Below are positions 22,543 to 39,245 of a stretch of 64,000 nucleotides of DNA, piece by piece. Below the pieces are notes generated by a model, which saw only the letters and a program-made list of their open reading frames with translations, was not told where the DNA came from and did no database searches. The stretch is from Acidobacteriaceae bacterium (GTDB taxonomy: Bacteria; Acidobacteriota; Terriglobia; Terriglobales; Acidobacteriaceae). Location: contig PKUV01000160.1 in assembly GCA_003131315.1 (NCBI GenBank), positions 59,804 through 123,803 of the forward strand, given 5' to 3'. Position numbers and translations under genes: made by a program. How positions within the stretch are numbered: position 1 is the first letter of the stretch; each line of letters begins with the position of its first letter.

Positions 22543-22572
22543 TTGTCAACTGTTTGACAACTACGACAGTTG
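22543..22572. promoter_or_regulatory. nested inverted repeats (candidate operator)
   Basis: TTGTCAA-CTGT-TTGACAA lies at 22543-22560. It overlaps CAACTGT (22547-22553) ... ACAGTTG (22566-22572). TGTTTG occurs three times nearby. Confidence 0.45.
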
Positions 22573-22766
22573 TTTGTATGCTGTGTCGGCGTCGAATCAG
22601 TGTAGGCAACGCTGCAGATTTCTACGCCAAACGACTGGATCGGCAAGAACCGCTCGCAACGCTTAAGTTGCGCTGCGGAGCGCCGAACGGGTATTTTGCG
22701 ATCGCGAAGCAAGATGGCGTTCGGCTGTGTGTCGCGCAGATCGCTCCTGTGGTTAGTTCGTTCTTT

Positions 22767-23588
22767 ATGAAGGGCTCTCCCCGCAAAACGGCAATCTCGT
22801 GGGTCGAATCGGATCGTATTCTGCTGCGAGGGTATCCGATCGATGCGCTCGTGGGAAATGTATCGTGGGCAGCAGCAGTTTACCTTGCGCTGGTCGGGGA
22901 AATACCGAATCCACGGATAGCGCGGCTTCTGGAGGGCATTCTGGTCTCAGTCATCGATCATGGCCCAACCCCCGCATCCACTCTCGCAGCGTGTACAGTG
23001 GCTAGCACCGGGTCGCCGTTAGCTAGTTCTGTGGCAGCCGGGCTCCTTGCGATAGCGAAGTCTCACGGCGGGGCAATTGAAGATTGCATGAGCGTGCTGG
23101 AGCGTTGTGTGGGCCTGAAACAAGATCCGGCTACGGCCGCTGCCAAAGTGGCACGCGAGTACCGGGAACAGGCGATTAGGGTTCCCGGGTTTGGTCATCG
23201 GCAACATTCGGCGGATCCTCGTAGTATCCGATTGCTCGACCTGGCTCGCGAGCTCGATTTGTTCGGAAACTATGTCGCCCATGCACAAGCCATGGAGGAT
23301 GTTCTGTCTAGAATTGCAGGCAAGCGATTACCGCTCAATGCAGACGGAGCGATAGCTGCTCTGCTCTGCGAGATTGCATTCCCGAAAACAGCCGCGAACG
23401 GAATCTTTATGATCGCCAGGATTCCGGGCTTGGTAGCGCACTGCCTTGAAGAGCAGGCGCGTAACCTTCCGCTGCGCGCCATCGATCCGGCTGCCTATGA
23501 ATATGATGGCCCCCCCGAGCGCAGTCTCGGTGGACAGAAGCACACACCAGAAAATGCGGTCGGAGAGTCCAAGGGAATGCAACCGTGA
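22767..23588 (+). CDS. citrate-synthase-family protein, short citryl-CoA-lyase-like form
   Basis: 273 aa. ILLRGYPIDALVG...VIDHGPTPAS...VPGFGHRQHSADPR...IARIPGLVAHCLEEQ. The start at MKGSPRK was chosen over the longer 22554 frame. Confidence 0.75.
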   Translation: MKGSPRKTAISWVESDRILLRGYPIDALVGNVSWAAAVYLALVGEIPNPRIARLLEGILVSVIDHGPTPASTLAACTVASTGSPLASSVAAGLLAIAKSHGGAIEDCMSVLERCVGLKQDPATAAAKVAREYREQAIRVPGFGHRQHSADPRSIRLLDLARELDLFGNYVAHAQAMEDVLSRIAGKRLPLNADGAIAALLCEIAFPKTAANGIFMIARIPGLVAHCLEEQARNLPLRAIDPAAYEYDGPPERSLGGQKHTPENAVGESKGMQP

Positions 23589-25087: not shown

Positions 25088-25163
25088 TTGACAAAGGGCG
25101 CCTCTCCCATGAAAATCAGCACCTAGTGACAAGTGTTTGAAACAGAAAACAGTGGAAAACAGT
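25088..25163 (+). promoter_or_regulatory. candidate promoter and operator of duplicated module A
   Basis: TTGACA (25088-25093), then 17 nt, then GAAAAT (25111-25116). Next come the palindrome TGTTTgAAACA (25134-25144) and GAAAACAGT twice (25145, 25155). Confidence 0.35.
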
Positions 25164-25229: not shown

Positions 25230-26660
25230 ATGGCAGGCGAAAAGATAACCGCGATTGAAGCCACGTATGTGATGGTGCCAGACAACGGTTCGCAGACGAT
25301 ACTGCGCGACAAGACGGTAGTGGTGGAAGGGGACCGGATCAAGGAAGTGAGCGATCACTACGACGGTCCCGTGGATCGCCGGATCAAAGCGGAGGGCCGC
25401 CTGCTCTCTCCCGGTTTCATTAATTGTCATACACATGTGGGGTGCGCCACGTACTCACGTGGGATGGCCGAGGATCGCGACCTGGTCGAAGGCAGTGCCT
25501 TCTACCATTATTTCGTCCCGTTGCTGACAATTGGCTATAAGCATTTCACGCCTGACGAAATGTCGGCTCTCCTGGAATGGGACATTCTGGAGATGATCAA
25601 GAAGGGTTCTACCACAATTCTGGAAGAGAATTTTGGTGGTTACGACAGCGTCATCGAAATTGTGAACCGACTGGGGAACCGAGCCTACATTAGCTACAGC
25701 TATCCCAACCAAGTCAGCAAGATCGGCTACCTCAAAGACGGTAAGCTGTGCTATGACAAGCCGGATCCGATTGAGGTGGGCAAGGGTCTGAGACGGGGCC
25801 TGGAAATGTATGACAAATACAATGGGTCTGCTTCGGATCGAATCCGCGTGCGACTGAGTCCCACGGGTCCGGACACGTGTCCCCCAGAGGTCTTGAGGGA
25901 CACGCGAAAAGCCGCTGACCGACTCGGTTGTGGCATCAGTATCCACGCCGCACACCATTCCACTGAGGTGAATTTTTGCAGGAACGTCTTCAATGCCAGT
26001 CCGATCGAGCATTTGGCGAATACGGGCATTTTAGGTCCGGATACGATCATTACTCACGTTACCTACACTGACGAAAAAGACCGAAACCTGCTCGCAGCGT
26101 CGAATTCCACTGTAGTCCACTGTTCCTACCGTAAGGCGCGCGAGGCAGTCATCAGCCCCTATCATGAGTACGTTGAGAAAGGGATCAACGTCGCGCTCGG
26201 GACAGACTCTTTTTCGAGTGATATCACCGAGACCATCAAAATGGCCGGGGTACTGGGCAAGATCCGCATGGAGCGTGTTGGAGTCCCCACGGCCGTGGAA
26301 GTCATGGGCTCGGCTACATTGTCGGGGGCAAAAGGGTTGGGCCGCGATGATATCGGTCAAATCAAGGCTGGCGCGAAAGCCGATATGGTGCTGATCGACC
26401 TCACTAAGACCCACAACTTTCCTGTGATAGAGCCAATCAAGAACTTTGTCTACTATTCCTTCGGCACCGACGTGGAGACCGTCATGATCAACGGCAAAAT
26501 CGTCATCGAAAACGGCATCGCACTGACCACCGACGAGTCGGCACTTCGCAAGCGAGTGCAGGCAGCCGCGGACCGCATTTGGGCGATTGCTGCCCGCGAA
26601 GGGGCGCTGCCGGGTGTTTCGTTTGTCCCGAGTAAGAAAACAGAGCCGGTGACCGTATAG
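25230..26660 (+). CDS. Amidohydro_1 deaminase/chlorohydrolase-like amidohydrolase (module A)
   Basis: GFINCHTHVG (HxH), ISIHAAHH and ALGTDS. It resembles the cytosine/guanine/MTA-deaminase and TrzA/AtzA group, and is roughly 60% identical by eye to 32221-33660. Confidence 0.85.
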   Translation: MAGEKITAIEATYVMVPDNGSQTILRDKTVVVEGDRIKEVSDHYDGPVDRRIKAEGRLLSPGFINCHTHVGCATYSRGMAEDRDLVEGSAFYHYFVPLLTIGYKHFTPDEMSALLEWDILEMIKKGSTTILEENFGGYDSVIEIVNRLGNRAYISYSYPNQVSKIGYLKDGKLCYDKPDPIEVGKGLRRGLEMYDKYNGSASDRIRVRLSPTGPDTCPPEVLRDTRKAADRLGCGISIHAAHHSTEVNFCRNVFNASPIEHLANTGILGPDTIITHVTYTDEKDRNLLAASNSTVVHCSYRKAREAVISPYHEYVEKGINVALGTDSFSSDITETIKMAGVLGKIRMERVGVPTAVEVMGSATLSGAKGLGRDDIGQIKAGAKADMVLIDLTKTHNFPVIEPIKNFVYYSFGTDVETVMINGKIVIENGIALTTDESALRKRVQAAADRIWAIAAREGALPGVSFVPSKKTEPVTV

Positions 26661-26690
26661 ATCGAGAGTCTGGGCAGGAAGGATGAAAAG

Positions 26691-27863
26691 ATGCCGTATG
26701 AGCGGCTTGTGATCAGGCCGGAGAAATGGAAGGCTTCCAACAACGAGGCAACCTCGCCAGCCGTCAGAGCGGGTGACCTTTTATTTGTCGCAGCCCAACA
26801 TTCGATCGAAGGAAATGTACGCGAGCAGGCCCGCGTTGCGCTGGAACGCATACGCGAGATAGTAACCGCAGCGGGTGGCACGATGGACGACGTTGTGGAT
26901 GTCGTAGCTTTCTTTCTTGACATCCGAGATGCGGAAGACGTGCTTGAGGTCAGCCGCGAGTTTTTCTCCAAAGACTATCCGGCCTGGACTTTTATGGGAA
27001 CTCAGGGTCTTCCCCAGCGCGGGTCAGCCGTACATATTCATGCGGTAGCTCATCTCGGGAAGGCCAAGAAACAGTGCTTTACGCCAGACAGTCTTCGATG
27101 GTGGCATAAGTACCCCATGTCCGGTGCCTGCCGCAAGGGCGAGTACCTTTTTATATCGGGGCAAATGGCGGCCGACTTGGATGGCAACATTACGAACCCT
27201 GGCGATCATGCAGCGCAATCCCGCTACATCTTCCATCGGCTCGAAGAGCTGGCCGAACTCGCGGGTGGAAACTTTCGAAGCGATGTTCTCGATCTCCTTT
27301 CTTTCAGTATCGACCCCCGCAGCTTCAATCCCATGTGCATCGACGTCGGATGCAAGGAATTCCTCACCATGCCGTTGTCGCAGGCTCCGTCATGGTCGGT
27401 GATTGGCAGCACCGGATTGTTTAAGCACCTCGCCTTCCATACTGTGAGGGCCATTTGCGAGATTGGAAATGGCAAGGCCGTCGCTTTTACGCCCAGCAGT
27501 ATTTTTTGGAAATATTTGCCTGTCTCCGGGGCCACCAAGAAAGAGCACGGCCATCTGTTGTGCATCGCCGGCGAAGTGGGAATGGACATGGATGGCCAGA
27601 TCGTCTCTCCTGGAAATCCAGCAGCACAAGGTCGCTACGCGTTTAACCGAATCAAAGAGGTAGTGGAGATGGCAGGCGGCACAATGTCCAATATCGTGGA
27701 CATTATCTCCTTTCACAAGGATGTCCGTGCCATACCCACAATTCAGGAAGTCTCGAAGGAATTCTTCAAGGGGCAGCCGCCCGCTTGGACTGCTGTTGGC
27801 TATCCAGGGGGATATTTCGAGGGGCACCTACACGAGATCTGTGCGAGAGCCTGGCTGCCATAA
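26691..27863 (+). CDS. triple RidA/YjgF-domain fusion protein (module A)
   Basis: 390 aa, made of 3 x ~130-aa repeats. Each has RidA-like blocks (AGDLLFVAAQ / KGEYLFISGQ / GHLLCIAGE; ...AGGTMDDVVDVVAF / AGGNFRSDVLDLLSF / AGGTMSNIVDIISF). PAWT/PSWS/PAWT replace the canonical PAR. Confidence 0.8.
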   Translation: MPYERLVIRPEKWKASNNEATSPAVRAGDLLFVAAQHSIEGNVREQARVALERIREIVTAAGGTMDDVVDVVAFFLDIRDAEDVLEVSREFFSKDYPAWTFMGTQGLPQRGSAVHIHAVAHLGKAKKQCFTPDSLRWWHKYPMSGACRKGEYLFISGQMAADLDGNITNPGDHAAQSRYIFHRLEELAELAGGNFRSDVLDLLSFSIDPRSFNPMCIDVGCKEFLTMPLSQAPSWSVIGSTGLFKHLAFHTVRAICEIGNGKAVAFTPSSIFWKYLPVSGATKKEHGHLLCIAGEVGMDMDGQIVSPGNPAAQGRYAFNRIKEVVEMAGGTMSNIVDIISFHKDVRAIPTIQEVSKEFFKGQPPAWTAVGYPGGYFEGHLHEICARAWLP

Positions 27864-27912
27864 AGCAGGATCGCGGCGGCAGGATTATTTGGGTTCATAA
27901 CGGGAGCGGGAA

Positions 27913-28797
27913 ATGTCTGATACCAACTACAAAGCGGTAGATATTTCTATTAATGCGTTTCTGCCTGAGAGTTCCTACAAACATCTGTCACTCGGCTTGT
28001 GGAAGGCGTCCGGGCCATCGTACGAAGAGAAAATCCGCAAAGGCTGGACCGCCGAGTACATGGTTGAGATGATGGACCGAGGAAACGTGGAGTTGTCTTG
28101 CCTGATTTCATTGTGCTCGGCGAACGGCGTAGGCGGGGAGGAATTGATCGTCCCTATTGAAGAAATCATTCCAGTCATCCAGAAATATCCCAAGCGGTTC
28201 GTCGGGCTGGTGGGACTTTCGCCACTGCAGAAATGGGGAAGTCCTTACTATCCACCCACCTACATTGAACGTGCGGTGAAGGAACACGGCTTCAAAGGGG
28301 TACACATGTATCCCCACTGGTTCGGAATCAGGGTTAACGATCGGCGCATGTATCCCATTTATGAGAAGTGTGCGGAGCTTGATGTCCCTATTTCATTCCA
28401 GACCGGACAAGGGACGATGCGTTCGAATTCGCGAGTCGTGGCCCGTCCAATTTGGATCGACGAAATTGTGCGGGATTTTCCGACGCTGAAAGTGATTGCG
28501 CTGCACAGCGGATATCCGTGGGAAGACGAGTTAGTTGCGCTCGCGATCACGAATGAGCACGTCTACATTTGTCCTGACGTTCCGCCACCACGACTGTGGC
28601 ATGCGTCCATATTGTCCTACTTGAAAGAAGAAGGGCGTTTCGAGGGCATGAGTGGAAGCGACAAGGTCTTGTGGGCTACTGACTTCCCGTTACAAGAGCC
28701 CGACAAATCCTTGAAAGAGGTGGATGCGCTCGGATTGACTCCGGAAATTCGTCGGAAACTGGTGCGAGACAATGCAATAAAGCTGTTCAAGCTGTAA
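27913..28797 (+). CDS. Amidohydro_2 (ACMSD/LigI-like TIM-barrel) protein (module A)
   Basis: HMYPHWFG, ALHSGYPWEDE and LWATDFP. The N-terminal site reads VDISIN instead of D-x-H-x-H. Confidence 0.8.
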   Translation: MSDTNYKAVDISINAFLPESSYKHLSLGLWKASGPSYEEKIRKGWTAEYMVEMMDRGNVELSCLISLCSANGVGGEELIVPIEEIIPVIQKYPKRFVGLVGLSPLQKWGSPYYPPTYIERAVKEHGFKGVHMYPHWFGIRVNDRRMYPIYEKCAELDVPISFQTGQGTMRSNSRVVARPIWIDEIVRDFPTLKVIALHSGYPWEDELVALAITNEHVYICPDVPPPRLWHASILSYLKEEGRFEGMSGSDKVLWATDFPLQEPDKSLKEVDALGLTPEIRRKLVRDNAIKLFKL

Positions 28798-28845
28798 GAG
28801 TTGACGAGCCCGCGGCAAGGTGATGGGAGAACGTCGGGAGAGGCA

Positions 28846-29727
28846 ATGATTCAGGCGATAGATGTTTGTGTTAATCCGTTTTTCCCGGAATTCAGCGGCA
28901 AGTATGCCCGCTTGGGGTATTGGAATTTCCTCGGTGGCAACATGCTGCGTAGAGCCAAAAACGGCTGGACAGTCGAGGAACTTCTCCGTTCGATGAACGA
29001 GGCGAAGGTGGAAATGGCGGGATTGGTTGCCTTTTGCGCTGCAAGCCCAAGCAATGGAGCCGACTGTTTTATCCCGGCAGAGAAGCTAAAACCGATTCTT
29101 GATTCCCATCCGCAACGTTTTTTCGGCCTAGTTGGGGTTAACCCTCTCGCCCCAATTCAAGACGACTATTACGCTCCGCGGTATCTTGAGCGCGCAGTGA
29201 AGGAGTTTGGCTTTAAGGCCGCCCATCTTGCCTTACACTGGTTTGGCATGCAGCCAAATGACAAGCGCCTGTATCCGATTTATGAGAAGTGCCTGGAGCT
29301 GGGCGTGCCTGTCGTGATGCCGCTCGGGGCTGCGCCTCCACGCTCCGGGGCGCGCAACGTGGCGGAACCGCATTTGCTTGATCCGGTCATCGGTGATTTT
29401 CTGGAACTAAGTATCGTCGGACAATCCATTGGATATCCGTGGGAGCGGGAATCGGTCTATCTAGCGCGGAATAATGCCAACTTCAGTGTGCTAGCCGATT
29501 CGCCAGCCCCCGAGCACTGGATTGCAGATTTTGTCGGGTTCATCAAACAAGGACGCTTTCCCAAGCATGATGCCGGAAGCGATCAAGTGATGTGGGGGTC
29601 AGGGTTCCCCTTTAAGGATCCCGCTCAATCTCGCAGTCAATTTGATGCGATCGCGTTCACAGACGTCATTGCCTCTCAGCTACTTCGGGAAAATGCACTA
29701 CGGATTTTCAAACTTGGCATTCGCTAA
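28846..29727 (+). CDS. Amidohydro_2 protein, divergent paralog (module A only)
   Basis: IDVCVNPFFPEF, HLALHWFG, IGYPWERE and MWGSGFP. GGGAGAGG lies upstream of the ATG at 28846. Confidence 0.8.
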   Translation: MIQAIDVCVNPFFPEFSGKYARLGYWNFLGGNMLRRAKNGWTVEELLRSMNEAKVEMAGLVAFCAASPSNGADCFIPAEKLKPILDSHPQRFFGLVGVNPLAPIQDDYYAPRYLERAVKEFGFKAAHLALHWFGMQPNDKRLYPIYEKCLELGVPVVMPLGAAPPRSGARNVAEPHLLDPVIGDFLELSIVGQSIGYPWERESVYLARNNANFSVLADSPAPEHWIADFVGFIKQGRFPKHDAGSDQVMWGSGFPFKDPAQSRSQFDAIAFTDVIASQLLRENALRIFKLGIR

Positions 29728-29743
29728 GGGATAGGCTCGCTCT

Positions 29744-30985
29744 ATGGCACCCAGTATGCGTGGCTGGAAACTTCTTCTGTTGTTGTGCCTGACCAATGTC
29801 ATGGCTTACATCGGAGTCTTTGAGTTGCCTCCGATTATTGGCAATCTGGTTCACGAATTCCATATCAGTTATGCGCAAGCGGGCTTGTTTATGAGCGTTT
29901 ACGCATTGGTGCGCATGATTGGCAGTCTGATGGCGGGGACGTTCAGCGACCGGTATGGTGTAAAGTACTTTATCCTCGCGGGGCTCGTGCTGATTGCGCT
30001 GGGCGGATTTCTTTGCGCTCATAGCCACGGATACGCGTCCATGTTGGCTTATCGCACAATCATCGGTATCGGTGCGACTTTGATTTTCATCCCCGGCCTG
30101 GCGGCGGCAATGTATCTGGTCCCGCCACATCAGGTCAATCTTGCAACCGGAACGTATTTCACGTCCATGAACCTGGGCCTGACTGTCGCCCTCCTGGTCA
30201 CTCCCATCATGGCCTCGTCGTTTACCTGGCGTACTCCACTCAATCTTTTTGCCGGTCTTAGCATACTCGTGGCACTTGTGTTCTTTGTCGTAACTCGCGG
30301 GCAAACTCTGCAGGCATCAGGCGACCTCCAGGTGACAGGACGGAATAGTGAGCGTGCAGCCGGTACGTACTCGATTCGGAATGTGCCTCTTGTCCTGGTT
30401 TGCATCGGCTATTTTCTGATGTTATTTCACACTTACGGGATGATTACGTGGCTGCCGGAATATTTGAAAGTCGCCCGAGGTTACTCCCCTGCTGTGGTGG
30501 GAGCGGTATCAATGCTACTCGGACTCGTCATGATACCTGGGACCTTTATTTCAGGATGGCTGGGAGACCGCATTGGAGCCTGGGGAATTGGCATGATTGG
30601 CGTGGTTCTTTGCGGCGGCTGTCCGGCGGCATTTATTTTATTCCCAAGAATCCCGCTGTGGGGTGTTTTTGCTGGAGTATGTTTCCTGGCATTCGGCATT
30701 TGTTTATTTGTTGTGCCTCTCACTAGCATTCTCAGTTACCTTGTGCCAGCCAAGGACAACGGAAAGGCGGTTGGCCTGGTCCATACCACAGGATATGCGG
30801 GCTCGATTGCATCCACTTATCTTGGCGGTTACCTGCTTACCCTCACCGGGAATTATTCGTGGCCGTTTGCGTTATATGTCGGTTCAATGGTTGTCAGTCT
30901 TTTTCTGCTGTTAGCGATGCACCGATACTATGCCGAGGCCGAAACGGGTCGACGTGCGCCTGCGGTTGAGGCCCAACCCGCGTAG
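29744..30985 (+). CDS. MFS transporter (module A)
   Basis: 413 aa with ~12 hydrophobic segments and a GTFSDRYG loop 2-3 motif. Confidence 0.85.
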   Translation: MAPSMRGWKLLLLLCLTNVMAYIGVFELPPIIGNLVHEFHISYAQAGLFMSVYALVRMIGSLMAGTFSDRYGVKYFILAGLVLIALGGFLCAHSHGYASMLAYRTIIGIGATLIFIPGLAAAMYLVPPHQVNLATGTYFTSMNLGLTVALLVTPIMASSFTWRTPLNLFAGLSILVALVFFVVTRGQTLQASGDLQVTGRNSERAAGTYSIRNVPLVLVCIGYFLMLFHTYGMITWLPEYLKVARGYSPAVVGAVSMLLGLVMIPGTFISGWLGDRIGAWGIGMIGVVLCGGCPAAFILFPRIPLWGVFAGVCFLAFGICLFVVPLTSILSYLVPAKDNGKAVGLVHTTGYAGSIASTYLGGYLLTLTGNYSWPFALYVGSMVVSLFLLLAMHRYYAEAETGRRAPAVEAQPA

Positions 30986-31064
30986 ACATCACGATTCGCT
31001 CAGGCTGGACCAAGCCGCCATAGAGGAACAACTTTGCTAGCGCGCACTATTTCGGGGAGACGCA

Positions 31065-32201
31065 ATGCCAACAGCTTCATCGGCTAATCGCTCAGCAGCG
31101 AACAAAGCCATCGAAAATGGGGACCTGATGCGGGGGGCCCGCAACTGTGTTAACGGATATTGCGCGATCCAGCGCGACGAGCGCGTCCTCTTGTGGCTGG
31201 ATCGCAACGACACCGTCGACCCAACCGTCGTGAATGCTCTGGTGACGGCAATTGATGAAACTGGCGCCCCACTTAGTGTATTGCGAACGAAGGCCCCGAT
31301 TTTCCGGTATGGACAAAGGCTGTCTCCCGTAGAGGAAGCAGCAATATCCAATGCAAATGTCCTGATGCATGTCTTCGACCTGGAGAACGCAGCTTCGGTG
31401 GACAACGCTGACATCTATCGGTGCATGTGGGAGCACGAGTTGCGGGTCACGTCGGTGATCGCAACCACTCCCCGCATCATGAACTCTGATTGGGCCCATT
31501 ACCCGCCTGAACTGCATTACTACATGTGGATTAAATCAGCCCGACTGCTTTGCGACACCGAAGCGCATCTGACCGATGATCTCGGTACCGATCTCCACAT
31601 GAAGTTGTTCCCGTGGCCTAAAGGCGATCCCCTCTCGTCGTCTTGGGCGAGCGTAGACAAGAAGGCCAAAGTGCACCGCCCGGCAGGAACATGGGAATTT
31701 TTCCCAGGTGGCACGATCGCGCTTTGTCCCAAGGCCGTGGAAGGTACCTTGGTGTTCGAACTCCTTGAGGGATTTGCGGGCTACTTGAGCGAGCCGATTC
31801 GGTTGACGATCAAGGATCACTGGGTGACGAAAGTTGAAGGCGGAACGGAAGCTAAGTGGCTGAAGGAGCGCATGCGTCGTTATAACAACGGGTCTTACTT
31901 CTGCGAATTCGCCTGGGGAATCAATCCGCGTTCCCCCTTGCAGGAGGGTTTGAAGGTAAAAGCTCCGGATAGTCTTCTGTTTCGTCGGGCAGGGAGCTTT
32001 CATTGCGCCGTGGGGCTCTGGCCCGGAATGGGTGTGCCCAGTCCTTTCCACTGGGATGGCGGCGGGCTAAAGCCGACGCTGACACTGGGTAAGAAGACTG
32101 TCATTGACCGGGGATATTTCACCATGCTGGATGACCCGGACGTGCGGGAGTTGGCTTCAAAGTATGGGAATCCAGAGGAATTCTTGTCGTACGAAAGTTG
32201 A
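31065..32201 (+). CDS. M29 (thermophilic metalloprotease) / NicX-superfamily protein
   Basis: CEFAWGINPRS and SPFHWDGGG resemble the GEFgIGtN and H-x-D metal motifs of M29 aminopeptidases and 2,5-dihydroxypyridine dioxygenase. The assignment is by eye. Confidence 0.55.
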   Translation: MPTASSANRSAANKAIENGDLMRGARNCVNGYCAIQRDERVLLWLDRNDTVDPTVVNALVTAIDETGAPLSVLRTKAPIFRYGQRLSPVEEAAISNANVLMHVFDLENAASVDNADIYRCMWEHELRVTSVIATTPRIMNSDWAHYPPELHYYMWIKSARLLCDTEAHLTDDLGTDLHMKLFPWPKGDPLSSSWASVDKKAKVHRPAGTWEFFPGGTIALCPKAVEGTLVFELLEGFAGYLSEPIRLTIKDHWVTKVEGGTEAKWLKERMRRYNNGSYFCEFAWGINPRSPLQEGLKVKAPDSLLFRRAGSFHCAVGLWPGMGVPSPFHWDGGGLKPTLTLGKKTVIDRGYFTMLDDPDVRELASKYGNPEEFLSYES

Positions 32202-32220
32202 AAGAAAGAGCTGAGGGGGC

Positions 32221-33660
32221 TTGGTCTTGAAGGAGAACGAATCGACAGAAGGGCCGATCACAGCGATTCACGCCAGCTATGTGGTGGTGCCTGAGAAAAA
32301 TAGCCACGACGTTCTGCGAGATAAGACGGTGGTCGTCCGCGGCAATCGCATCTGGCAGATTTGTGACAGCTATGCGGGTCCTGCGGACATAAGTATCCAT
32401 GCCGCTGGCAGACTGCTCGCGCCTGGATTTATCAACGCACACGTACACGTGGGAGCCGCCACTTACGTACGGGGTTTGTGCGAGGATCGCGACCTGCTTC
32501 CGGGAAGCGCCTTTTATCACTACGTGGTTCCGCTGATCGCAGTGGGCGCGGCAAATTTCAGTCTTGAAGAGTTCGGCGCTGTGATCGAGTGGGATATGTT
32601 GGAAATGCTTAAGAAAGGTTCGACAACTATTCTGGAAGAGAATTTCGATCACTATGAGATCCTGGTAAAAGTGGCCGAGCGCCTGGGAAATCGGGCTTAT
32701 CTGAGCCCCACATATCCTTCCGGTCATGGGAACATTGGTTACATCAAGGATGGAAAACTCCAGTACGATCGTCCGGCAGAAGGCGCTGTTAGCGCTGGGT
32801 TACAACGAAACATCGACCTGCACGCCCAGTTCAATGGGTGTGCCAACGATCGTATTCGTGTGCGCCTGAGCCCTACGGGGCCAGATACCTGCCCGCCCGA
32901 TGTTCTACGGGAGACCCGGAACGCAGCCGACCGGTTGGGCTGTGGCATCAGCATTCACGCGGCGCATCACCAGAGGGAGTTCGAAATATGCCGGACCAAA
33001 TTCAATGCGACGCCCATCGAGCACCTGGCTAATACCGGGATCCTGGGCCCGGACGCGGTCGTCACGCACTGCACTTTCACCGATGAAAACGATCGGAAAC
33101 TGCTGGCCGAGAGCAAATCCACCGTGGCCCATTGTTCTTACCGCAAAGCCCGAGAGGCGGTAATCGGACCCTTCTGGGAGTATCTGCAAAAAGGGATTAA
33201 TGTCGCGCTGGGAACGGACTCGTACTCCAGTGACATTACAGAGACGATCCGAATGGCCGCCGTGCTGGGCAAGATCAAGGCCGGCCGTGTAGGCGCGCCC
33301 ACGGCCGCGGATGCATTCGATGCGGCAACTCTCGGCGGGGCAAGGGGATTGGGGCGAGATGATCTGGGCCAAATCAAGCCCGGTGCCAAAGCTGACCTTG
33401 TGCTGATCGACTTGACCAAGCCGCACAACTGTCCCGTCATCGATCCCATCAAGAATTTTGTCTACTACTCGTCGGGCACCGATGTGGAAACCGTGATGGT
33501 GGATGGGAAGATCGTTGTCGATCGGGGACGCGCGGTGAATACCGATGAAGATGACTTGCGGGAGCGAGTTCGTTCCGCGACCCAGCGCATTTGGCGTCTG
33601 GCGGATGAAAAGGGCGTTGTCGATGGGTTACGGCCCGCGCTCACCTCGGGAAACTCATGA
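32221..33660 (+). CDS. Amidohydro_1 deaminase-like amidohydrolase (module B)
   Basis: GFINAHVHVG, ISIHAAHH and ALGTDS. It is a paralog of 25230-26660. The TTG start is uncertain. Confidence 0.85.
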   Translation: MVLKENESTEGPITAIHASYVVVPEKNSHDVLRDKTVVVRGNRIWQICDSYAGPADISIHAAGRLLAPGFINAHVHVGAATYVRGLCEDRDLLPGSAFYHYVVPLIAVGAANFSLEEFGAVIEWDMLEMLKKGSTTILEENFDHYEILVKVAERLGNRAYLSPTYPSGHGNIGYIKDGKLQYDRPAEGAVSAGLQRNIDLHAQFNGCANDRIRVRLSPTGPDTCPPDVLRETRNAADRLGCGISIHAAHHQREFEICRTKFNATPIEHLANTGILGPDAVVTHCTFTDENDRKLLAESKSTVAHCSYRKAREAVIGPFWEYLQKGINVALGTDSYSSDITETIRMAAVLGKIKAGRVGAPTAADAFDAATLGGARGLGRDDLGQIKPGAKADLVLIDLTKPHNCPVIDPIKNFVYYSSGTDVETVMVDGKIVVDRGRAVNTDEDDLRERVRSATQRIWRLADEKGVVDGLRPALTSGNS

Positions 33661-34835
33661 CCACCTTTCAGCGAGTGGGACTCCAGATTGAAGGCTCGTC
33701 AGGGAAGCCATTTTCGTCGGCTGTCCGTGCCGGAGATCTGCTATTCATCAGCGGTCACACCGGAGTGCATGGAGATAACCCTAGCGGCGACGTTCGTGTC
33801 CAGGCGAGATCTTCCTTCCGCGAGATTGAGAAGGCCGTCACCATCGCGGGCGGCACAATGTCTGACGTGGTGGACATACTTGCCGCGTTTGTCGATATCC
33901 GCGACGCCGATGACGTTCTCGAAGTAGCCCGGGAGTTTTTCCCTAGAGACTATCCTGCTTGGACTGCGATGGGCACCCAAGGCTTGCAGCATCGGGGATC
34001 TAAGCTTCTGATTCATGCCGTGGCTCACCTTGGCCCTGAGAGAAAGCAGTGTTTCACTCCCGACAGTTTGCGCTGGTGGCGCAAGTACCCGATTTCAGGG
34101 GCGTGCCGCAAGGGACCATATGTGTTTATCTCGGGGCAGATGCCTATCGATATTGACGGAAATGTGGTGAACGCCGGAGATCATGGTGCCCAGGCCCGAT
34201 ATCTGTTCAGTCGGATGAAAGAACTCGCGGAGTTTGCTGGCGGCAAACTGGAAGATGACCTGCTCGATATCCTCTCCTTTAGTATTGATCCTCGATCCTT
34301 TGCGCCGATGTGCGCAGTGAAGAACAGTGAGTTCCTTACGATGCCATTCGCGCAGGCACCGTGCTCATCCATTATTGGCGCAACGAGTCTCTATCGACAC
34401 CTGGTGTTTCACACGGTACGCGCACTGTGTGAGGTCGGTAACGGTAAGGCTGTGGCCTACACACCCAAGAGCGTTTTCTGGCGCTACTTGCCAGTGTCGG
34501 GGGGGACGAAGAAAGAAAAAGGGCATCTTCTTTGCGTGGCGGGTGAAGTCGGCATGGATATGGATGGGCAGATCGTAACTCCCGGCGATGCGGTAGCGCA
34601 GGCGCGCTATGCGTTCAATCGCATTCGTGATGTGGTTGAAATGGCGGGAGGTAGCATGGATAGTGTCGTAGACCTCATTTCGTTCCACAAGGATGCACGC
34701 GAGATCGAACCCGTCATGGAAGTCGCTCGTGAGTATTTCCGCGGTGACCCTCCGGCTTGGACTGCAATTGGATATCCTGGCGGCTATTTTGAGGGACATC
34801 TACATGAGATCCTAGCGCGGGCGTGGATTTCCTGA
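33657..34835 (+). CDS. triple RidA/YjgF-domain fusion protein (module B)
   Basis: 392 aa, collinear with 26691-27863. PAWT/PCSS/PAWT occupy the canonical Arg position. It has an ATGA overlap with the upstream gene. Confidence 0.8.
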   Translation: MTTFQRVGLQIEGSSGKPFSSAVRAGDLLFISGHTGVHGDNPSGDVRVQARSSFREIEKAVTIAGGTMSDVVDILAAFVDIRDADDVLEVAREFFPRDYPAWTAMGTQGLQHRGSKLLIHAVAHLGPERKQCFTPDSLRWWRKYPISGACRKGPYVFISGQMPIDIDGNVVNAGDHGAQARYLFSRMKELAEFAGGKLEDDLLDILSFSIDPRSFAPMCAVKNSEFLTMPFAQAPCSSIIGATSLYRHLVFHTVRALCEVGNGKAVAYTPKSVFWRYLPVSGGTKKEKGHLLCVAGEVGMDMDGQIVTPGDAVAQARYAFNRIRDVVEMAGGSMDSVVDLISFHKDAREIEPVMEVAREYFRGDPPAWTAIGYPGGYFEGHLHEILARAWIS

Positions 34836-34854
34836 CTTAGGGACAGAACCGTAA

Positions 34855-35817
34855 ATGGATACGCCGGAAAAAGAGCAACCGAGCTACCAGGCAATCGACG
34901 TTTCGGTCAACATACACTTACCGGAGCATTCGCACCGGTTGTTGCCCCTTGGTCTTTATAAAGCGGCAGGGCCGACTTGGGTCGAGAAAATTCGGGCGGG
35001 TTGGCCCCCAGAATACATGCTGGAGATGATGGATCGGTCTAAGGTTCAGCTTTCGCTAGTAATCTCCCTTTGGTGCGCGAACGGGGTAGGTGGGGAAGAG
35101 CTTTATGTCGCTGCTGAGGAAATGTTGCCTATGTTTGCAGCGCACCCGACTAAGTTCCTTGGCTTGGTTGGGATCTCACCGATCAGAGCCTGGACCGACA
35201 AATACTATGCCCCCAGATATATCGATCGCATGGTTCGGCAGTATGGATTCAAGGGGGCCCATATGTATCCCCACTGGTTCGGCATACGCATCGACGATTC
35301 CCGCATGTATCCGATCTTCGAAAAGTGCGTGGAGCTGGATGTTCCCATTTCCTTTCAGACAGGTCAGGGCACTATGCGCTCAAATTCACGCATTGCGGCC
35401 AGGCCTATTTGGATTGATAAGATCGTCCGTGATTTTCCCGAGCTGAGAATCGTCGCTTTGCACAGCGGATATCCGTGGGAGGAGGAATTGGTCGCCTTGG
35501 CCATCAACAATGAGAACATTTTCATCTGCCCGGATGTCCCTCCGCCGCGTTTGTGGCACACCGCCATACTCGAGTATTTGAAAGAAGAAGGACGATTTGA
35601 GGGTTTGGGTGGCAGCAACAAAGTTGTCTGGGCAACAGATTGGCCCTTGCAGGATCAGGAAACCTCTCTGAAGGAAATCGATGCTCTTGCTTTGGCGCCC
35701 CAAGTTCGGAAGAAGTTGGTGCGGGACAACGCGATCCGCATCTTCAAACTGGAAACTGAATCGCAAGACTCGAAAAGCTCAATGAGCGAATCCGAAAATG
35801 GGAAGTGCGAGAAATGA
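34855..35817 (+). CDS. Amidohydro_2 protein (module B)
   Basis: IDVSVNIHLPEH, HMYPHWFG, ALHSGYPWEEE and VWATDWP. It is roughly 80% identical by eye to 27913-28797 over the C-terminal half and shares the 22-nt run tgcacagcggatatccgtggga. Confidence 0.85.
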   Translation: MDTPEKEQPSYQAIDVSVNIHLPEHSHRLLPLGLYKAAGPTWVEKIRAGWPPEYMLEMMDRSKVQLSLVISLWCANGVGGEELYVAAEEMLPMFAAHPTKFLGLVGISPIRAWTDKYYAPRYIDRMVRQYGFKGAHMYPHWFGIRIDDSRMYPIFEKCVELDVPISFQTGQGTMRSNSRIAARPIWIDKIVRDFPELRIVALHSGYPWEEELVALAINNENIFICPDVPPPRLWHTAILEYLKEEGRFEGLGGSNKVVWATDWPLQDQETSLKEIDALALAPQVRKKLVRDNAIRIFKLETESQDSKSSMSESENGKCEK

Positions 35818-37037
35818 ACGCACCGTCCAGATCGTGGTTCGCTCTGTTATTGATCTGTTCGGCTGTGTTTTGCGCATTCGTTGCTGTGTTTGCGATCCCT
35901 CCGTTAATGGGTATGCTCACTCGTCAGTTTCAAATCAGCTACGCCAGAGCGGGACTCTTCATGACGGCGTATACCATGATCCCGACCTTTGGAAGTCTGC
36001 TGATTGGCTTTTACAGTGATCGTATTGGCGTGCGGCGCGCTGTTCTCAACGGTTTGACGCTCCTGGGTGCGGCTGGGATTCTCTCGTCTCTGACTCAGAC
36101 CTTCTGGCAAATGCTGGCTTGCCGAATCCTGATTGGAATTGGCGCAACTAGCATTTTTGTGCCGGGGCTAGCCACAGTGCTACACCTGCTTCCTCCGGCG
36201 AGGGTCAATTTGGCTACCGGCGCATTCTTTAGTTCACTGAATCTCGGTTTGTCCGTTGCCATGCTTTCGACCCCGACCATCGCCAAATCCCTGGGATGGC
36301 GGGTTCCGTTGTCTTTATTCGGAGCATTGGCAATGATTTTGGCGGCAATCATATTATGTTTCACAAACGCGGACTTTTTCCGGCGATCCTGGAATGCAAC
36401 CAGTGAAAGCACGAAGGCATCCACCCGGGAGAGTTCAGGATGGCCGCTCGTACTGGTGAGTGCAGGCAATTTCCTTCTGTTCTTTCAGTCCTTTGCCATG
36501 ATCACGTGGCTTCCGGAATATCTTTCGCAACAGCGCCAATTCCCACCGGGCCAAGTAGGAGCTATCTCAATGTTGCTTGGGCTCGTAGTCATTCCTGGAT
36601 CGGTGCTAGCCGGCTGGCTGGCAGATCGTGTCGGAGCATGGCTAGTCGCAGTCGCGGGTGCCGTCTTGTGTGCGATCTGTCCAGCCGTGCTGGTCCTGGC
36701 TACAGAACTCAGGTCGTCCCGAGTTTCAATCGCGATCTGTCTACTTTCGCTCGGGACCAGTTTACTAGCCGTCCCGCTAACCAGCGTGCTAGCCAAGCTA
36801 GTTGCTCAAGAACACGGCGGAAAAGCCGTTGGACTCATTCTTACCACCGGCTACGGGGGAGCAATTGTTTCCACCTATTTGGGTGGATACCTGTTAACCG
36901 CCAGCGGCAGCTCTCGGTGGACCTTTTTCATGTGCTCTCTTTCCATGTTATTGACTGTCGTAGTCCTGGCTTTTCTACGCGAGACCTATCGCCTTCTGGA
37001 AACGCGGCCGGATCTATCGGCAGAGGCATTAAGATAA
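35814..37037 (+). CDS. MFS transporter (module B)
   Basis: It has an ATGA overlap with the previous gene and is a paralog of 29744-30985 (GFYSDRIG loop). Confidence 0.85.
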   Translation: MNAPSRSWFALLLICSAVFCAFVAVFAIPPLMGMLTRQFQISYARAGLFMTAYTMIPTFGSLLIGFYSDRIGVRRAVLNGLTLLGAAGILSSLTQTFWQMLACRILIGIGATSIFVPGLATVLHLLPPARVNLATGAFFSSLNLGLSVAMLSTPTIAKSLGWRVPLSLFGALAMILAAIILCFTNADFFRRSWNATSESTKASTRESSGWPLVLVSAGNFLLFFQSFAMITWLPEYLSQQRQFPPGQVGAISMLLGLVVIPGSVLAGWLADRVGAWLVAVAGAVLCAICPAVLVLATELRSSRVSIAICLLSLGTSLLAVPLTSVLAKLVAQEHGGKAVGLILTTGYGGAIVSTYLGGYLLTASGSSRWTFFMCSLSMLLTVVVLAFLRETYRLLETRPDLSAEALR

Positions 37038-37038
37038 C

Positions 37039-37056
37039 TGTTTATTTATGTAAACA
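37039..37056. promoter_or_regulatory. 18-bp palindrome TGTTTA-N6-TAAACA upstream of hyuA
   Basis: Read directly. It is followed by CAATTG and a TATTAT -10-like box (37064-37069). The same architecture occurs at 45335-45352. Confidence 0.45.
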
Positions 37057-37115: not shown

Positions 37116-39245
37116 GTGGCATACAGACTAGCGATTGACGTAGGGGGAACGTTTACCGATCTTTTGCTGTTCAATGAAAGCTCGGGTGAGTTGGTACTGG
37201 CAAAAACCCCTTCCACAAGCGACGATCCCTCCATTGGAGTGCTTACCGGGATTCACAAGGTAGCATCACTGGCGGGCATCGATCCTAACCGAGTCTCGTT
37301 GATTCTGCATGGCACAACGGTTGCCACCAACGCGGTGCTGGAAGGTAAAGGTGCCCGCGTCGGCCTGATTACCACCCGTGGCTTCGAGCAGGTCCTTCAC
37401 GTTGCGCGCGGGCAAACTCCGGGTCCCTTGGCTGGCTGGATCATCATGATCAAACCTGAGCCTATGGCCCCTCTGGAGTTGACTCTTGGCATCAGTGCGC
37501 GAATGAGCGCTACGGGTAAAGTGCTGGTGCCGTTGGATGAAAACGAAGCGCGGGGCGTGGTACGAGAGTTGTGCGCCCGTGGAATTCAAGCGCTCACGAT
37601 TTCCTTGCTCAACTCGTACGCCAATTCCGAACACGAGAGGAAACTGAAGCAGATCGCCGAAGAGATTACCGGCGACGTGGCGGTTACAGCTTCGTATGAA
37701 ATTCTGCCCGAATTTCGTGAGTATGAGAGGACCCTGACGACGGTGATGAATTCCTACGTCCGTCCTCGCATGCACTTATATCTTGACGGCATGCAGCGGA
37801 GGCTGAAGCAGGACAACCTTACCGCTCGTATGGAAATCGTGCGTTCCGATGGCGGCGTTATGAGCCTGAAAGCTGCATCGGAGTACCCTGTAACGACATT
37901 GCTGTCAGGGCCCTCCGGCGGGGCGGTGGCGTCTGCCTATATTGGTGAGCTGTCAGGATTCGCAAATGTTCTGTCGTTCGACATGGGCGGTACCTCGACT
38001 GATGTGGCATTGTCGCGAGATGGAATGCCGTCTGTCATTCGCGAAACGCGGGTTGGTCAGTATCCCGTGAAAGTGGCCAGCGTCGATGTTCATTCGGTTG
38101 GTGCCGGAGGGGGTTCAATCGCGCATGTGCCGATCACAGGCGCTTTGCGCGTAGGTCCGATGTCGGCTGGGGCGGAGCCCGGCCCGGCCTGTTATGGACG
38201 GGGGGGTAGCGAACCCACCGTGACCGATGCCAACGTTGTGTTGGGTTACTTACCGCCGGAGCTGCTCGCCGGCGAAATGAAATTGAATGAGGCACAGGCG
38301 GCCACAGCGGTTCAGAAGATTGCGGACGCCATGGGCCTGTCGCTTCTCGATGCTGCACAAGGAATCTACGACATTGTCAACGAGAACATGTTTGGGGCCC
38401 TGCGGCTAGTTTCGGTGCAGCGCGGCTATGATCCGAGGGATTTTGCGCTTCTCGCTTTGGGAGGCGCTGGCCCCCTTCATGCGAACGCACTCTCGTGTCT
38501 GATCAACTCGTGGCCGGCAATCATCCCTACCGTGCCCGGAGTGTTGTCGGCGCTTGGATTCCTGCATGCTGATATCAGAACTGAGTTTTCGCGCACTCTC
38601 ATACGCCCCGTGGCGCGAATTGACTTGGCTACAATCCGGAAGAGTATGGATGAGCTTGGATCCCAGGCTCGCGCATGGCTGAAGAGCGAAAACATTGCTG
38701 CTGCCCGTCAACGAGTCCAATTTCAATTCGATATGCGCTATTACCGCCAAGGCTATGAGTTTGCCATTGATGTGCAACCTGAATGGTTCAAAAACCAATC
38801 GGGGATGGAGCGAGTAGTAGAAAGGTTCAAGAATGTTCATCATCGCAACTACGCTTTCAACATCGACTACGAAGTCGAGATCGTAAACCTGCGAGCGATT
38901 GCGATCGGAGAAGTGCCGAAGGTTGAATTGAAGCGCCACGCAGTAACAAAGAGTGGCTCGGAGTCCGCACAGACCGGCAAGCGGAAGCTATATCACCATG
39001 GTCAATTCACCATTGCGACCGTATACGAGCGTTCGAGATTGAAAGCAGGTCATCGCATTCCGGGCCCTGCCGTCATCACACAAGCCGATTCCACTACTCT
39101 GATTGTGCCTGGGCACTACGGCGAAGTTGATCCCTATCTCAACATCTTGATTTGGCCGAATGATCGGCGTGGAACTACAGAGAAAAAAGTTTCGGCGGTC
39201 GGGACGAAGTCCGGCCATAGGAAGGGTAGCAAGCGTAGTCGATGA
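37116..39245 (+). CDS. hyuA: hydantoinase A / oxoprolinase-family ATP-dependent (lact)amidase, A subunit
   Basis: MAYRLAIDVGGTFTDLLLF... 709 aa. AGGAGA lies 9 nt upstream of the GTG. Confidence 0.85.
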   Translation: MAYRLAIDVGGTFTDLLLFNESSGELVLAKTPSTSDDPSIGVLTGIHKVASLAGIDPNRVSLILHGTTVATNAVLEGKGARVGLITTRGFEQVLHVARGQTPGPLAGWIIMIKPEPMAPLELTLGISARMSATGKVLVPLDENEARGVVRELCARGIQALTISLLNSYANSEHERKLKQIAEEITGDVAVTASYEILPEFREYERTLTTVMNSYVRPRMHLYLDGMQRRLKQDNLTARMEIVRSDGGVMSLKAASEYPVTTLLSGPSGGAVASAYIGELSGFANVLSFDMGGTSTDVALSRDGMPSVIRETRVGQYPVKVASVDVHSVGAGGGSIAHVPITGALRVGPMSAGAEPGPACYGRGGSEPTVTDANVVLGYLPPELLAGEMKLNEAQAATAVQKIADAMGLSLLDAAQGIYDIVNENMFGALRLVSVQRGYDPRDFALLALGGAGPLHANALSCLINSWPAIIPTVPGVLSALGFLHADIRTEFSRTLIRPVARIDLATIRKSMDELGSQARAWLKSENIAAARQRVQFQFDMRYYRQGYEFAIDVQPEWFKNQSGMERVVERFKNVHHRNYAFNIDYEVEIVNLRAIAIGEVPKVELKRHAVTKSGSESAQTGKRKLYHHGQFTIATVYERSRLKAGHRIPGPAVITQADSTTLIVPGHYGEVDPYLNILIWPNDRRGTTEKKVSAVGTKSGHRKGSKRSR

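Follow-up and report, generated by a model that had tools for sequence, protein, structure and literature searches.

A stretch of 64,000 nucleotides (nt) from an Acidobacteriaceae bacterium (assembly GCA_003131315.1, contig PKUV01000160.1, positions 59,804 to 123,803 of the forward strand), referred to here as the window, carries two gene modules of matching composition, A (25230-30985) and B (32221-37037), with a NicX-like gene, X, between them; all coordinates are positions in the window. Gene families were assigned with Pfam and NCBIfam profiles, the Protein Data Bank (PDB) was searched by sequence, and structures were modeled with AlphaFold2 (AF2) and compared using Foldseek. The modules lie within a dense run of co-oriented genes on the + strand at 22.5-54 kb. 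According to Pfam, module A consists of an Amidohydro_1 gene (A1), a gene with three Ribonuc_L-PSP domains (A2), two Amidohydro_2 genes (A3 and A3b), and an MFS_1 gene (A4), and module B has the same families in the same order and on the same strand, minus the second Amidohydro_2 gene (B1-B4). The features of this locus are as follows.

25088-25116, + strand: promoter-like site TTGACA-17-GAAAAT upstream of A1 (consensus scan; conserved in seven genomes)
25134-25151, + strand: operator-like palindrome, copy 1, just 3' of the promoter-like site (motif count, orthologous positions)
25230-26660, + strand: A1, Amidohydro_1, a TRZ/ATZ (cog0402)-like hydrolase (Pfam, 7.9e-35)
26691-27863, + strand: A2, single-chain three-domain Rid protein (three Pfam stretches, AF2 model)
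27913-28797, + strand: A3, Amidohydro_2 TIM-barrel hydrolase (Pfam, 1.5e-33)
28846-29727, + strand: A3b, diverged Amidohydro_2 paralogue, with the open reading frame (ORF) running from TTG 28801 (40% identity to A3 and B3)
29744-30985, + strand: A4, MFS_1 transporter resembling anion:cation and aromatic-acid symporters (Pfam, NCBIfam)
31128-32201, + strand: X, metalloenzyme of the NicX/M29 fold, with the ORF running from 31065 (profile, AF2 fold)
32221-33660, + strand: B1, paralogue of A1 (BLASTP, Pfam)
33657-34835, + strand: B2, paralogue of A2 (BLASTP, Pfam)
34855-35817, + strand: B3, paralogue of A3, with no 3b partner (BLASTP, Pfam)
35805-37037, + strand: B4, paralogue of A4, MFS_1 (BLASTP, Pfam)
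37039-37056, + strand: operator-like palindrome, copy 2, between B4 and the next gene, HyuA (motif count)

For the A1 ORF, an alternative start at TTG 25137 is possible. The homologues of X begin near the internal ATG at 31128, not at the ORF start.

An earlier note, made by reading the sequence, had proposed that A and B arose by an ancient tandem duplication of the whole module. Indeed, the ORFs, strands, and Pfam families agree with the common gene order and orientation that it described, and the motifs that it quoted (INCHTHVG/INAHVHVG, SPTGPDTCPP, HMYPHWFGIR, and PDVPPPRLWH) are all present in the translations. BLASTP identity was 65.7% over 458 amino acids for A1/B1, 67.5% for A2/B2, and 67.9% for A3/B3; hence its estimate of about 60-80% held for the three enzyme pairs (66-68%) but not for the MFS pair A4/B4, which showed 46.3%. 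Any other member of the same families in the window was at most 30% identical to the module proteins, showing that the pairs, at 46-68%, are closer to each other than to random family members. At the DNA level, codon alignments gave an identity of 63-64% for the three enzyme pairs but of 52% for A4/B4; at third codon positions, the identity of A and B was 32-36%. Where the amino acids were identical, the same codon was found at a frequency of 0.29-0.39, and codon usage alone predicted 0.29-0.35. Because the observed codon identity equals the expectation from codon usage, synonymous sites are fully saturated. The number of nonsynonymous substitutions per site (dN) ranged from 0.20 to 0.29 for the enzymes and was 0.52 for A4/B4; all ORFs were intact. 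A numeric ratio of dN to the synonymous counterpart (dS) is meaningless at such saturation: the NG86 and YN00 methods fail, and maximum likelihood returns dS values of 8-25. Taken together, these observations identify A and B as paralogous modules that split long ago and of which both copies are constrained. Purifying selection acts on both, as seen from the low dN, the saturated dS, the intact ORFs, and the conservation in the six metagenome-assembled genomes (MAGs) described below, in agreement with the earlier idea of an old duplication with both copies kept.

The opposite idea, that one copy is redundant or decaying, or that the repeat is an artefact of assembly, is refuted by the same data, and we give it a negligible probability. 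Apart from a faster evolution of B than of A, nothing was found that favors it; every orthologue is full length, including those of B in at least six independent MAGs, and an assembly repeat is ruled out by a DNA identity of only 52-64%. Gene conversion was also considered. A 22-mer, TGCACAGCGGATATCCGTGGGA, occurs exactly at 28502 and 35459; however, 41 of 1000 simulations of that gene pair produced an identical run at least as long, and with four pairs tested the 22-mer is not significant. Gene conversion was accordingly rejected, as this run and the other repeats sit in conserved motifs and stay within the expectation from simulation.

The whole-module character of the event is seen in the distances. 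When the distance between A and B was divided by the deepest distance among orthologues, the ratios were 2.08, 1.75, 1.95, and 1.87 for genes 1 to 4. Since these ratios are equal, the four pairs are considered to be of the same age and to derive from one block duplication, as had been supposed, and the low identity of the MFS pair is explained by a faster rate and not by a different age. The GC content and the GC content at third codon positions of A and B match those of the neighbors, so that the compositional test for a foreign origin of one module was negative.

The relatives compared were Terriglobia/Acidobacteriaceae MAGs (L001-L005 and L007), a Gaiellaceae contig (L006), and more distant ones (L066, L068, L071, and the P0043 contig). 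In the scan of representative genomes, the six MAGs L001-L005 and L007 all carried the order A1-A2-A3-A3b-A4-X-B1-B2-B3-B4. Homologues of the A2 group were 73-95% identical to A2 and 64-69% to B2, and those of the B2 group were 74-92% identical to B2 and 64-69% to A2. Exact matches to proteins of the window were found on 17-23 public contigs, and their mates in 90% clusters came from MAGs named 'Terriglobales bacterium' and 'Candidatus Sulfotelmatobacter sp.', with accession numbers following the same gene order. In neighbor-joining trees, the A clade and the B clade were each monophyletic across the seven genomes, with bootstrap values of 95-100% for genes 1 and 3 and of 68-78% for the Rid gene when metagenome sequences were added. 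Judging from the whole A-X-B arrangement kept in at least six MAGs, the split predates the sampled Terriglobia.

Three side observations were made on these relatives. L003 (CAWAJU010000009.1) is labelled 'uncultured beta proteobacterium' and yet carries the Terriglobia-type cluster at 86-94% identity; its MAG label is probably wrong. In L006 (JBCKBY010000052.1), from the Gaiellaceae (Actinomycetota), a single A-type module is present at 64-75% identity, an indication of either transfer between phyla or mis-binning. In L007, A4 is only 74% identical to A4 of the window while A1-A3 are 94-95% identical, suggesting a local replacement around an insertion of an OsmC-like gene.

Outside this group the arrangement differs. 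L006 and related metagenome contigs have only one A1-A2-A3-A3b module, with 64-75% identity to either copy. On one contig from the Joint Genome Institute (JGI), the B unit reads X-B1-B2-B3-MFS-HyuA-HyuB, and the A unit is on the opposite strand at a distance of about 16 kb, directly after a block of outer-membrane, M24, M24, Amidohydro_2, small-ORF, and Amidohydro_2 genes. On the P0043 contig, the A unit is head-to-head with X-B1-B2-B3-MFS, and an isochorismatase gene is inserted after the Rid gene of the A unit. In L068, a single A-like module was found with X and an OsmC-like gene upstream, within the 21 kb inspected. Thus the tandem layout described in the earlier note stands for the window and its closest Terriglobia relatives, but not for the more distant ones, in which the two units face each other head-to-head or are separated by about 16 kb. 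As to whether one module or two is ancestral, for which it had proposed a comparison of synteny, six MAGs have the full A-X-B, and one relative has a single A-like module with X (21 kb). As for X, its place between the copies and its similarity to NicX were correctly described; because X heads B in the rearranged relatives, however, it is to be regarded as the first gene of the B unit, or of the ancestral one, and not as a neutral spacer.

These layouts also bear on another origin of the pair, in which A and B are homologous operons that diverged anciently, one of them possibly acquired horizontally, and were brought together by rearrangement to serve the same pathway. For the three enzyme genes, the bootstrap values were 57, 15, and 5% for A with B against the Gaiellaceae-type module, 24, 54, and 34% for A with the Gaiellaceae-type module, and 14, 20, and 61% for B with it, so that the three-way split has no consistent winner. 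Because the exclusivity of A and B against the Gaiellaceae-type module is unsupported, one copy may be xenologous. The divergent or distant placement of the units in other relatives, and the relative with only the single A-like module, are in accord with such an assembly of operons. On the other hand, the two units share a contig and lie no more than about 16 kb apart in every genome that has both, the relative divergence of all four pairs is equal, the base composition is identical, and tandem duplication followed by inversion is a simpler route to adjacent paralogous units. Hence we regard the joining of separate operons as unlikely and, treating A, B, and the Gaiellaceae-type module as a three-way split, consider a duplication within the lineage likely on these trees and layouts.

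The two copies differ in rate. Among the same seven genomes, the B orthologues diverge 1.4-2.5 times faster than the A orthologues, with the highest ratio, 2.5, for gene 3, and in all four genes the columns invariant in A and variable in B outnumber the reverse. In relative-rate tests with the Gaiellaceae module as the reference, B3 had more unique changes than A3 (p = 0.001-0.03), B2 had more than A2 (p = 0.006-0.15), and gene 1 was symmetric; these tests assume that the Gaiellaceae module is a true outgroup, and its position in the tree is poorly supported. The extra divergent Amidohydro_2 gene that had been noticed in A, A3b, is indeed present. It is ancestral and not an addition to A, because the Gaiellaceae-type module and all A units have it and none of the B units does. 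Accordingly, the ancestral unit had A3b and B lost it. Every orthologue of A3b has lost the His of LHSG (reading GQS) and the Asp of ATDFP (reading GSGFP). As the conserved His and the strand-8 Asp are gone from all of them, A3b looks like a partner of A3 and is probably non-catalytic. The faster evolution of B3 would fit an adaptation to working without A3b.

As for the enzymes themselves, the best NCBIfam match of A1 and B1 was the chlorohydrolase family PRK06151, at 277-300 bits against a cutoff of 416, and the closest PDB entries of A1 were 3lnp, AtzA, and a 5'-methylthioadenosine/S-adenosylhomocysteine (MTA/SAH) deaminase. INCHTHVG in A1 and INAHVHVG in B1 align to the H-x-H motif of 4dyk, 3hpa, and 3lnp, and their 'GTDS' aligns to 'GTDG'. 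The segment IHAAHH of A1 and B1 aligns to MHVHE, THLAE, and IHLHE of the deaminases, so that the position of the Glu is taken by His (H-A-A-H vs H-x-x-E). The Glu of the deaminase H-x-x-E motif is catalytic. Between A1 and B1 there are 42 fixed differences, three of them beside the H-x-H motif. In A3 and B3, S-x-N stands in place of H-x-H, and the later His residues and the Asp are kept; A3, B3, and A3b have S/C-x-N where the paralogue of the window at 51502 has H-x-H. The closest PDB entry to A3 was the uncharacterised protein BB4693 (3irs). Despite the match to the Pfam domain, A3, B3, and A3b do not have the N-terminal metal ligands of the ACMSD/LigW type of metal-dependent decarboxylases and hydratases, as neither H-x-H nor E-x-H is present; A3b has lost the later His and Asp as well.

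The AF2 model of A2 (predicted local distance difference test score, pLDDT, 94.5) is a covalent pseudo-trimer of Rid domains. Its best full-length structural matches were the chorismatases Hyg5 and FkbO (4bps, 5a3k, and 5ag3), at 11-15% identity, and each domain matched a RidA structure at a TMt of 0.8-0.9. The likeness to chorismatases is structural only, with no detectable homology of sequence: phmmer with A2 at E <= 1e-5 gave only single-domain Rid proteins and no chorismatase. Among NCBIfam models, RutC was the best match to both A2 and B2. In RidA, an Arg (Arg105 in Escherichia coli, Arg107 in goat) is essential for imine hydrolysis (PMC4433059). At this position, Trp is found in domains 1-3 of A2 and in domains 1 and 3 of B2, and Ser in domain 2 of B2, where Ser against Trp is a fixed difference between B and A. 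In alignments, the 'PAW' of A2 domain 1 falls on the 'PAR' found in several RidA proteins and also matches the R107W mutant of the goat protein. The '3x-RidA' fusions have been placed within RidA, the subfamily in which the catalytic Arg is kept, whereas the Rid4 and Rid7 subfamilies, which bear Trp, show no imine hydrolysis and have no known role (Niehaus et al. 2015, PMC4433059). With the catalytic Arg replaced by Trp or Ser, A2 and B2 were rejected as canonical RidA deaminases.

X had no Pfam or NCBIfam match at 1e-3; against the Pfam M29 family (PF02073) it scored 11.4 bits, with a cutoff of 27 and E=0.14. By sequence, X matched NicX in the PDB (E=3.7e-8), and its family profile matched NicX 7cn3 at E=8.5e-22. 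The AF2 model of X (pLDDT 90.8) gave Foldseek template modeling (TM) scores to NicX of 0.67-0.70. Homologues of X carry the NicX family PF26233, and some were named 2,5-dihydroxypyridine (2,5-DHP) dioxygenase by JGI. The invariant residues of X are E222, E260, H292, H308, and D310. In the profile alignment with 7cn3, His265 of NicX corresponds to Glu260, Ser302 to Ala294, His318 to His308, and Asp320 to Asp310, and His292 is invariant where NicX has Leu. The Fe(II) ligands of NicX are His265, Ser302, His318, and Asp320 (PMC7910607); two of these four are therefore unconserved in X. In the alignment with the M29 enzyme PepS, E222, E260, and H292 fall on Glu, Glu, and His. Of the conserved M29 residues EEHYHD (PMC7023490), X has five of six; the Tyr was unlocated, and the His/Asp pair is matched via the alignment with NicX alone. 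Hence X appears to have a hydrolase-type ligand set on a NicX-like scaffold and is more likely a metallohydrolase than a dioxygenase, and the name 'dioxygenase' given to its homologues may be wrong.

If X were instead a dioxygenase, the locus might be an oxygen-dependent nic/pic pathway for a pyridine ring, with A3/B3 as PicC-like decarboxylases and the isochorismatase as a maleamate amidase. The fold and sequence relationship of X to NicX, the PF26233 homologues and the dioxygenase name that some of them bear, the presence of Amidohydro_2 and isochorismatase genes, the OsmC gene adjoining X in relatives, and a molybdenum hydroxylase gene within 5 kb in L068 would all suit such a pathway. We nevertheless judge it quite unlikely, because X carries the Glu/Glu/His/His/Asp set of M29 in place of the full NicX ligands, A3 and B3 have no H-x-H motif, and the ORFs of the window that were scanned include no hydroxylase, monooxygenase, deformylase, or maleate isomerase. 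With two NicX ligands replaced and no hydroxylase among the scanned ORFs, a nic/pic pyridine cluster was rejected. The OsmC-like gene, of the peroxiredoxin family, adjoins X or the A unit in three relatives (L007, 14448-15050; L068, 6859-7470; and the P0043 contig) and is absent from the window.

On either side of A-X-B lie further genes, among them a CitF-like CoA-transferase and those listed here.

22767-23588, + strand: citryl-CoA-lyase-like gene (NF004869, score 244 against a cutoff of 212)
23585-25036, + strand: dihydropyrimidinase/allantoinase-like cyclic amidohydrolase (Pfam)
37116-39245, + strand: HyuA, forming an ATP-dependent hydantoinase/lactamase pair with HyuB (Pfam)
39290-41149, + strand: HyuB, partner of HyuA (Pfam)
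41231-42484, + strand: CoA-transferase III (Pfam, NCBIfam)
42490-43491, - strand: GntR regulator (Pfam, NCBIfam)
43596-44549, + strand: 3-hydroxy-3-methylglutaryl-CoA (HMG-CoA)-lyase-like gene, passing the HMG-CoA lyase subfamily cutoff
44609-45280, + strand: isochorismatase-like hydrolase (Pfam, NCBIfam)
45335-45352, + strand: operator-like palindrome, copy 3, before the probable true start of the outer-membrane gene
45375-54060, + strand: outer-membrane barrel, two M24/creatinase-like genes, Amidohydro_2, small ORF, and second Amidohydro_2 (Pfam)

Two ORF starts are probably placed too far upstream: the citryl-CoA-lyase-like ORF (22554-23588) likely starts near 22767, its homologue having 256 amino acids, and the outer-membrane ORF (45300-48800) near 45375, after the operator. 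The citryl-CoA-lyase-like protein passes the subfamily cutoff for citryl-CoA lyase, and the closest NCBIfam models of HyuA and HyuB were caprolactamase alpha and beta, below the cutoff. With X set aside, the family-assigned genes at 19.6-54.1 kb encode hydrolases, lyases, CoA-transferases, transporters, kinase-like proteins, or regulators, and no oxidoreductase. These neighbors are partly shared by the relatives. The citryl-CoA-lyase-like gene and the cyclic amidohydrolase lie just upstream of the module in L001-L003, L005, and L007; L004 has only the upstream amidohydrolase (59% identity), with no citryl-CoA-lyase-like gene just upstream, and in L071 both neighbors adjoin the B unit. HyuAB travels with the B unit, following the B-unit MFS gene in L071, and the outer-membrane/M24/Amidohydro_2 block travels with A, being fused to an A-type module in L066 and L068. 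For distant three-domain Rid homologues (<=49% identity), the neighborhoods were too heterogeneous to assign a function; they include ABC transporters, an amidase, a CocE/NonD-like hydrolase, a PhyH-like dioxygenase, and dehydrogenases, names that come from reading representative sequences only.

A common regulatory element was found in the intergenic region before A1 (g0b-A1). Seven genomes have TTGACA there, followed 17 nt on by GAAAAT and directly downstream by the palindrome AAyTGTTT-N8-AAACArTT. Its core, TGTTT-N(6-10)-AAACA, occurs 3 times in the 64-kb window against 0.17 expected, and none of 100 shuffles reached three. The copies are located before A1 (25134), 2 bases after the stop of B4 and before HyuA (37039), and before the outer-membrane gene (45335), in each case just 3' of a promoter-like site. 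The motif was seen in L002-L005, L007, and L071; the first copy is at the orthologous position in L002, L003, L004, and L007, and the position of the second is occupied in L004, L007, and L071, in the last case in the MFS-HyuA spacer of the rearranged contig. In the A4-X spacer, no conserved block, palindrome, or terminator-like site was found, and in L007 an OsmC-like gene is inserted there. Because a conserved promoter/operator precedes A1 and none precedes X, A-X-B is probably one operon; from these conserved sites we infer that the ten genes A1-A4 (with A3b), X, and B1-B4 are most likely read as one transcript from a regulated promoter upstream of A1. By the same motif, the HyuAB-CoA-transferase genes and the outer-membrane/M24 block are likely to be separate units that are co-regulated. 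The obvious candidate for the regulator of the palindromes is the GntR-family gene at 42490-43491, and it is the only regulator gene in the island. At 22551-22568, a promoter-like site is overlain by a weaker palindrome-like site. The Rfam search revealed no riboswitch or other RNA near the modules, its sole match being Acido-Lenti-1 at 60514.

A single operon raises the possibility that A and B do not serve different substrates but catalyze sequential steps of one pathway, or form an importer and an exporter with iso-enzymes. The lone conserved promoter/operator before A1, the linkage of the modules in every genome that has both, with one intergenic region shared where A and B are head-to-head, and the single regulator gene in the island speak for it. 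Conversely, each module is complete with its own transporter, and fixed differences between A and B beside the metal ligands of A1/B1 and at the domain-2 site of the Rid proteins form the usual pattern of a change in specificity. We give this arrangement appreciable weight while holding it to be less than probable. It overlaps our best explanation rather than excluding it. The two related but distinct substrates suggested in the earlier note are compatible with the fixed differences, but co-transcription under one operator would fit two intermediates of one pathway equally well.

That best explanation, which we hold to be on balance probable, combines a block duplication, one operon within a regulon, and the catabolism of a nitrogen-containing organic acid. 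The ancestral unit would have comprised the NicX-like gene, Amidohydro_1, the three-domain Rid gene, Amidohydro_2 with a dead Amidohydro_2 partner, and MFS, and its duplication as a single block would have long preceded the divergence of the sampled Terriglobia. Copy A would have remained ancestral-looking and slower, keeping A3b, and copy B would have evolved 1.4-2.5 times faster, lost the 3b partner, and kept the NicX-like gene at its 5' end. The common operator would make the locus a single regulon of about 35 kb. From the families present, we infer that its role could be to take up and degrade, largely by hydrolysis, an anionic organic acid that contains nitrogen and is of the amide, amidine, or lactam type. 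The compound would be imported by the outer-membrane protein and the MFS transporters, and its C-N bonds would be cleaved by the Amidohydro_1, Amidohydro_2, M24, NicX/M29-like, cyclic-amidase, and HyuAB enzymes. The Rid protein may process an intermediate of the enamine or enol type, or it may be a hydrolase resembling the chorismatases. The CoA transferases would next activate the carbon skeleton, and the citryl-CoA-lyase-like and HMG-CoA-lyase-like enzymes would cleave it, with A and B acting on two related compounds or on two successive intermediates.

Several observations weigh against parts of this explanation. In addition to the trees, which give no firm support for A and B as exclusive sisters, and to the possible xenology of one copy, A and B are not in tandem in the more distant relatives. 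The consensus scans of the window for promoters and terminators did not rise above shuffles, and for this reason only the promoter-like site conserved across genomes was used. A purely hydrolytic scheme is at odds with the oxygen-dependent chemistry hinted at by the recurrent OsmC neighbor together with the NicX fold. The presence of two MFS genes in one operon could mean either parallel substrates or an importer combined with an exporter. Furthermore, no protein reaches an equivalog-level family assignment, and no substrate can be named. Citrate-amide siderophores, creatinine/hydantoin-type compounds, and pyridine carboxylates were considered as substrates, and none was supported beyond a family-level resemblance; the Rut and creatinine pathways were rejected for lack of equivalog-level matches.

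More tentatively, and with less than even expectation, A-X-B and its co-regulated neighbors may form an undescribed pathway of peat and soil Terriglobales for a nitrogen-rich organic acid. Such a pathway would contain three enzyme types that have no characterised member, namely a Trp-type three-domain Rid protein that would be a true, chorismatase-like enzyme, a NicX-fold protein with an M29 hydrolase site, and an Amidohydro_2 protein with a dead paralogue. In that case the duplication would have given rise to two variants of specificity, with B doing without the dead partner and carrying an altered domain-2 site in its Rid protein. No paper on this combination of genes came up in literature searches, and plasmid searches with A2 and X were unproductive.

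Elsewhere in the window, S10-like serine carboxypeptidases number four and form two tandem pairs (28-39% identical), and there are two large outer-membrane barrel proteins (30% identical) and two tandem M24/creatinase-like genes (32% identical). These other old paralogue sets lie at the following positions.

5074-8281
13414-16717
8312-11806
45300-48800
48778-51493

The region is thus generally rich in ancient local duplications. The Rfam match to the Acido-Lenti-1 small RNA (60514-60559, + strand; 53.5 bits, gathering score 37) is inside or antisense to an efflux-pump gene region and is consistent with an acidobacterial origin of the DNA.

Duplication and divergence of an operon module is a textbook route to new catabolic specificities, and the event itself is unsurprising. 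The locus is a clean example of it, with an old duplication, both copies constrained, asymmetric rates, and one partner gene lost, and it is conserved across uncultured Terriglobia, which are dominant in many acidic soils and peats. Its value lies more in the uncharacterised enzyme set and regulon than in the duplication: it marks a hydrolase/CoA-lyase regulon of roughly 35 kb without an assigned substrate, and the shared context of a Trp-type Rid protein, a NicX fold with M29 ligands, and Amidohydro_2 proteins devoid of H-x-H is a starting point for the discovery of function.

Among known systems, the best sequence and fold match of X is NicX, the 2,5-dihydroxypyridine 5,6-dioxygenase of Pseudomonas putida (7cn3), with which it shares His318 and Asp320; X differs from it by an identity of about 19% and by the replacement of His265 and Ser302, and the partner genes of nic/pic have no counterpart at the locus, the isochorismatase-like gene excepted. 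The M29 aminopeptidases AmpS, AmpT, and PepS share the fold (TM 0.5-0.6) and the aligned Glu/Glu/His, whereas X is about 50 residues shorter and stands in a context of small-molecule catabolism, not of peptide turnover. A1 and B1 resemble the TRZ/ATZ (cog0402) enzymes atrazine chlorohydrolase, 8-oxoguanine deaminase, and MTA/SAH deaminase as their best matches and in H-x-H and Asp; unlike the deaminases of this group they have no H-x-x-E, and their scores are below every curated cutoff. FkbO/Hyg5 and the 3x-RidA fusions are, like A2 and B2, single polypeptides of three Rid/YjgF-like domains that form a covalent pseudo-trimer, but the 3x-RidA fusions keep the catalytic Arg, whereas A2 and B2 have Trp or Ser, as in Rid4/Rid7.

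At the level of the whole locus, the hydrolytic pathways for nitrogen compounds of the creatinine/N-methylhydantoin and Rut types likewise combine M24 creatinase-like, HyuA/HyuB, isochorismatase-like, and Rid-family proteins. The locus differs from them in having no RutA-type monooxygenase, and its CoA-lyase genes and duplicated module have no known counterpart there. Duplicated catabolic modules that diverge in specificity are already well known; tfd-I and tfd-II of plasmid pJP4 are two chlorocatechol clusters, duplicated catabolic modules on one replicon. They are, like A and B, two close, intact, and strongly diverged paralogous multi-gene modules that serve the same or related pathways. 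Unlike tfd-I and tfd-II, A and B are chromosomal, form one probable operon, and are conserved across a family-level group of Terriglobia, and they hold uncharacterised enzyme families with an MFS transporter of their own in each module.

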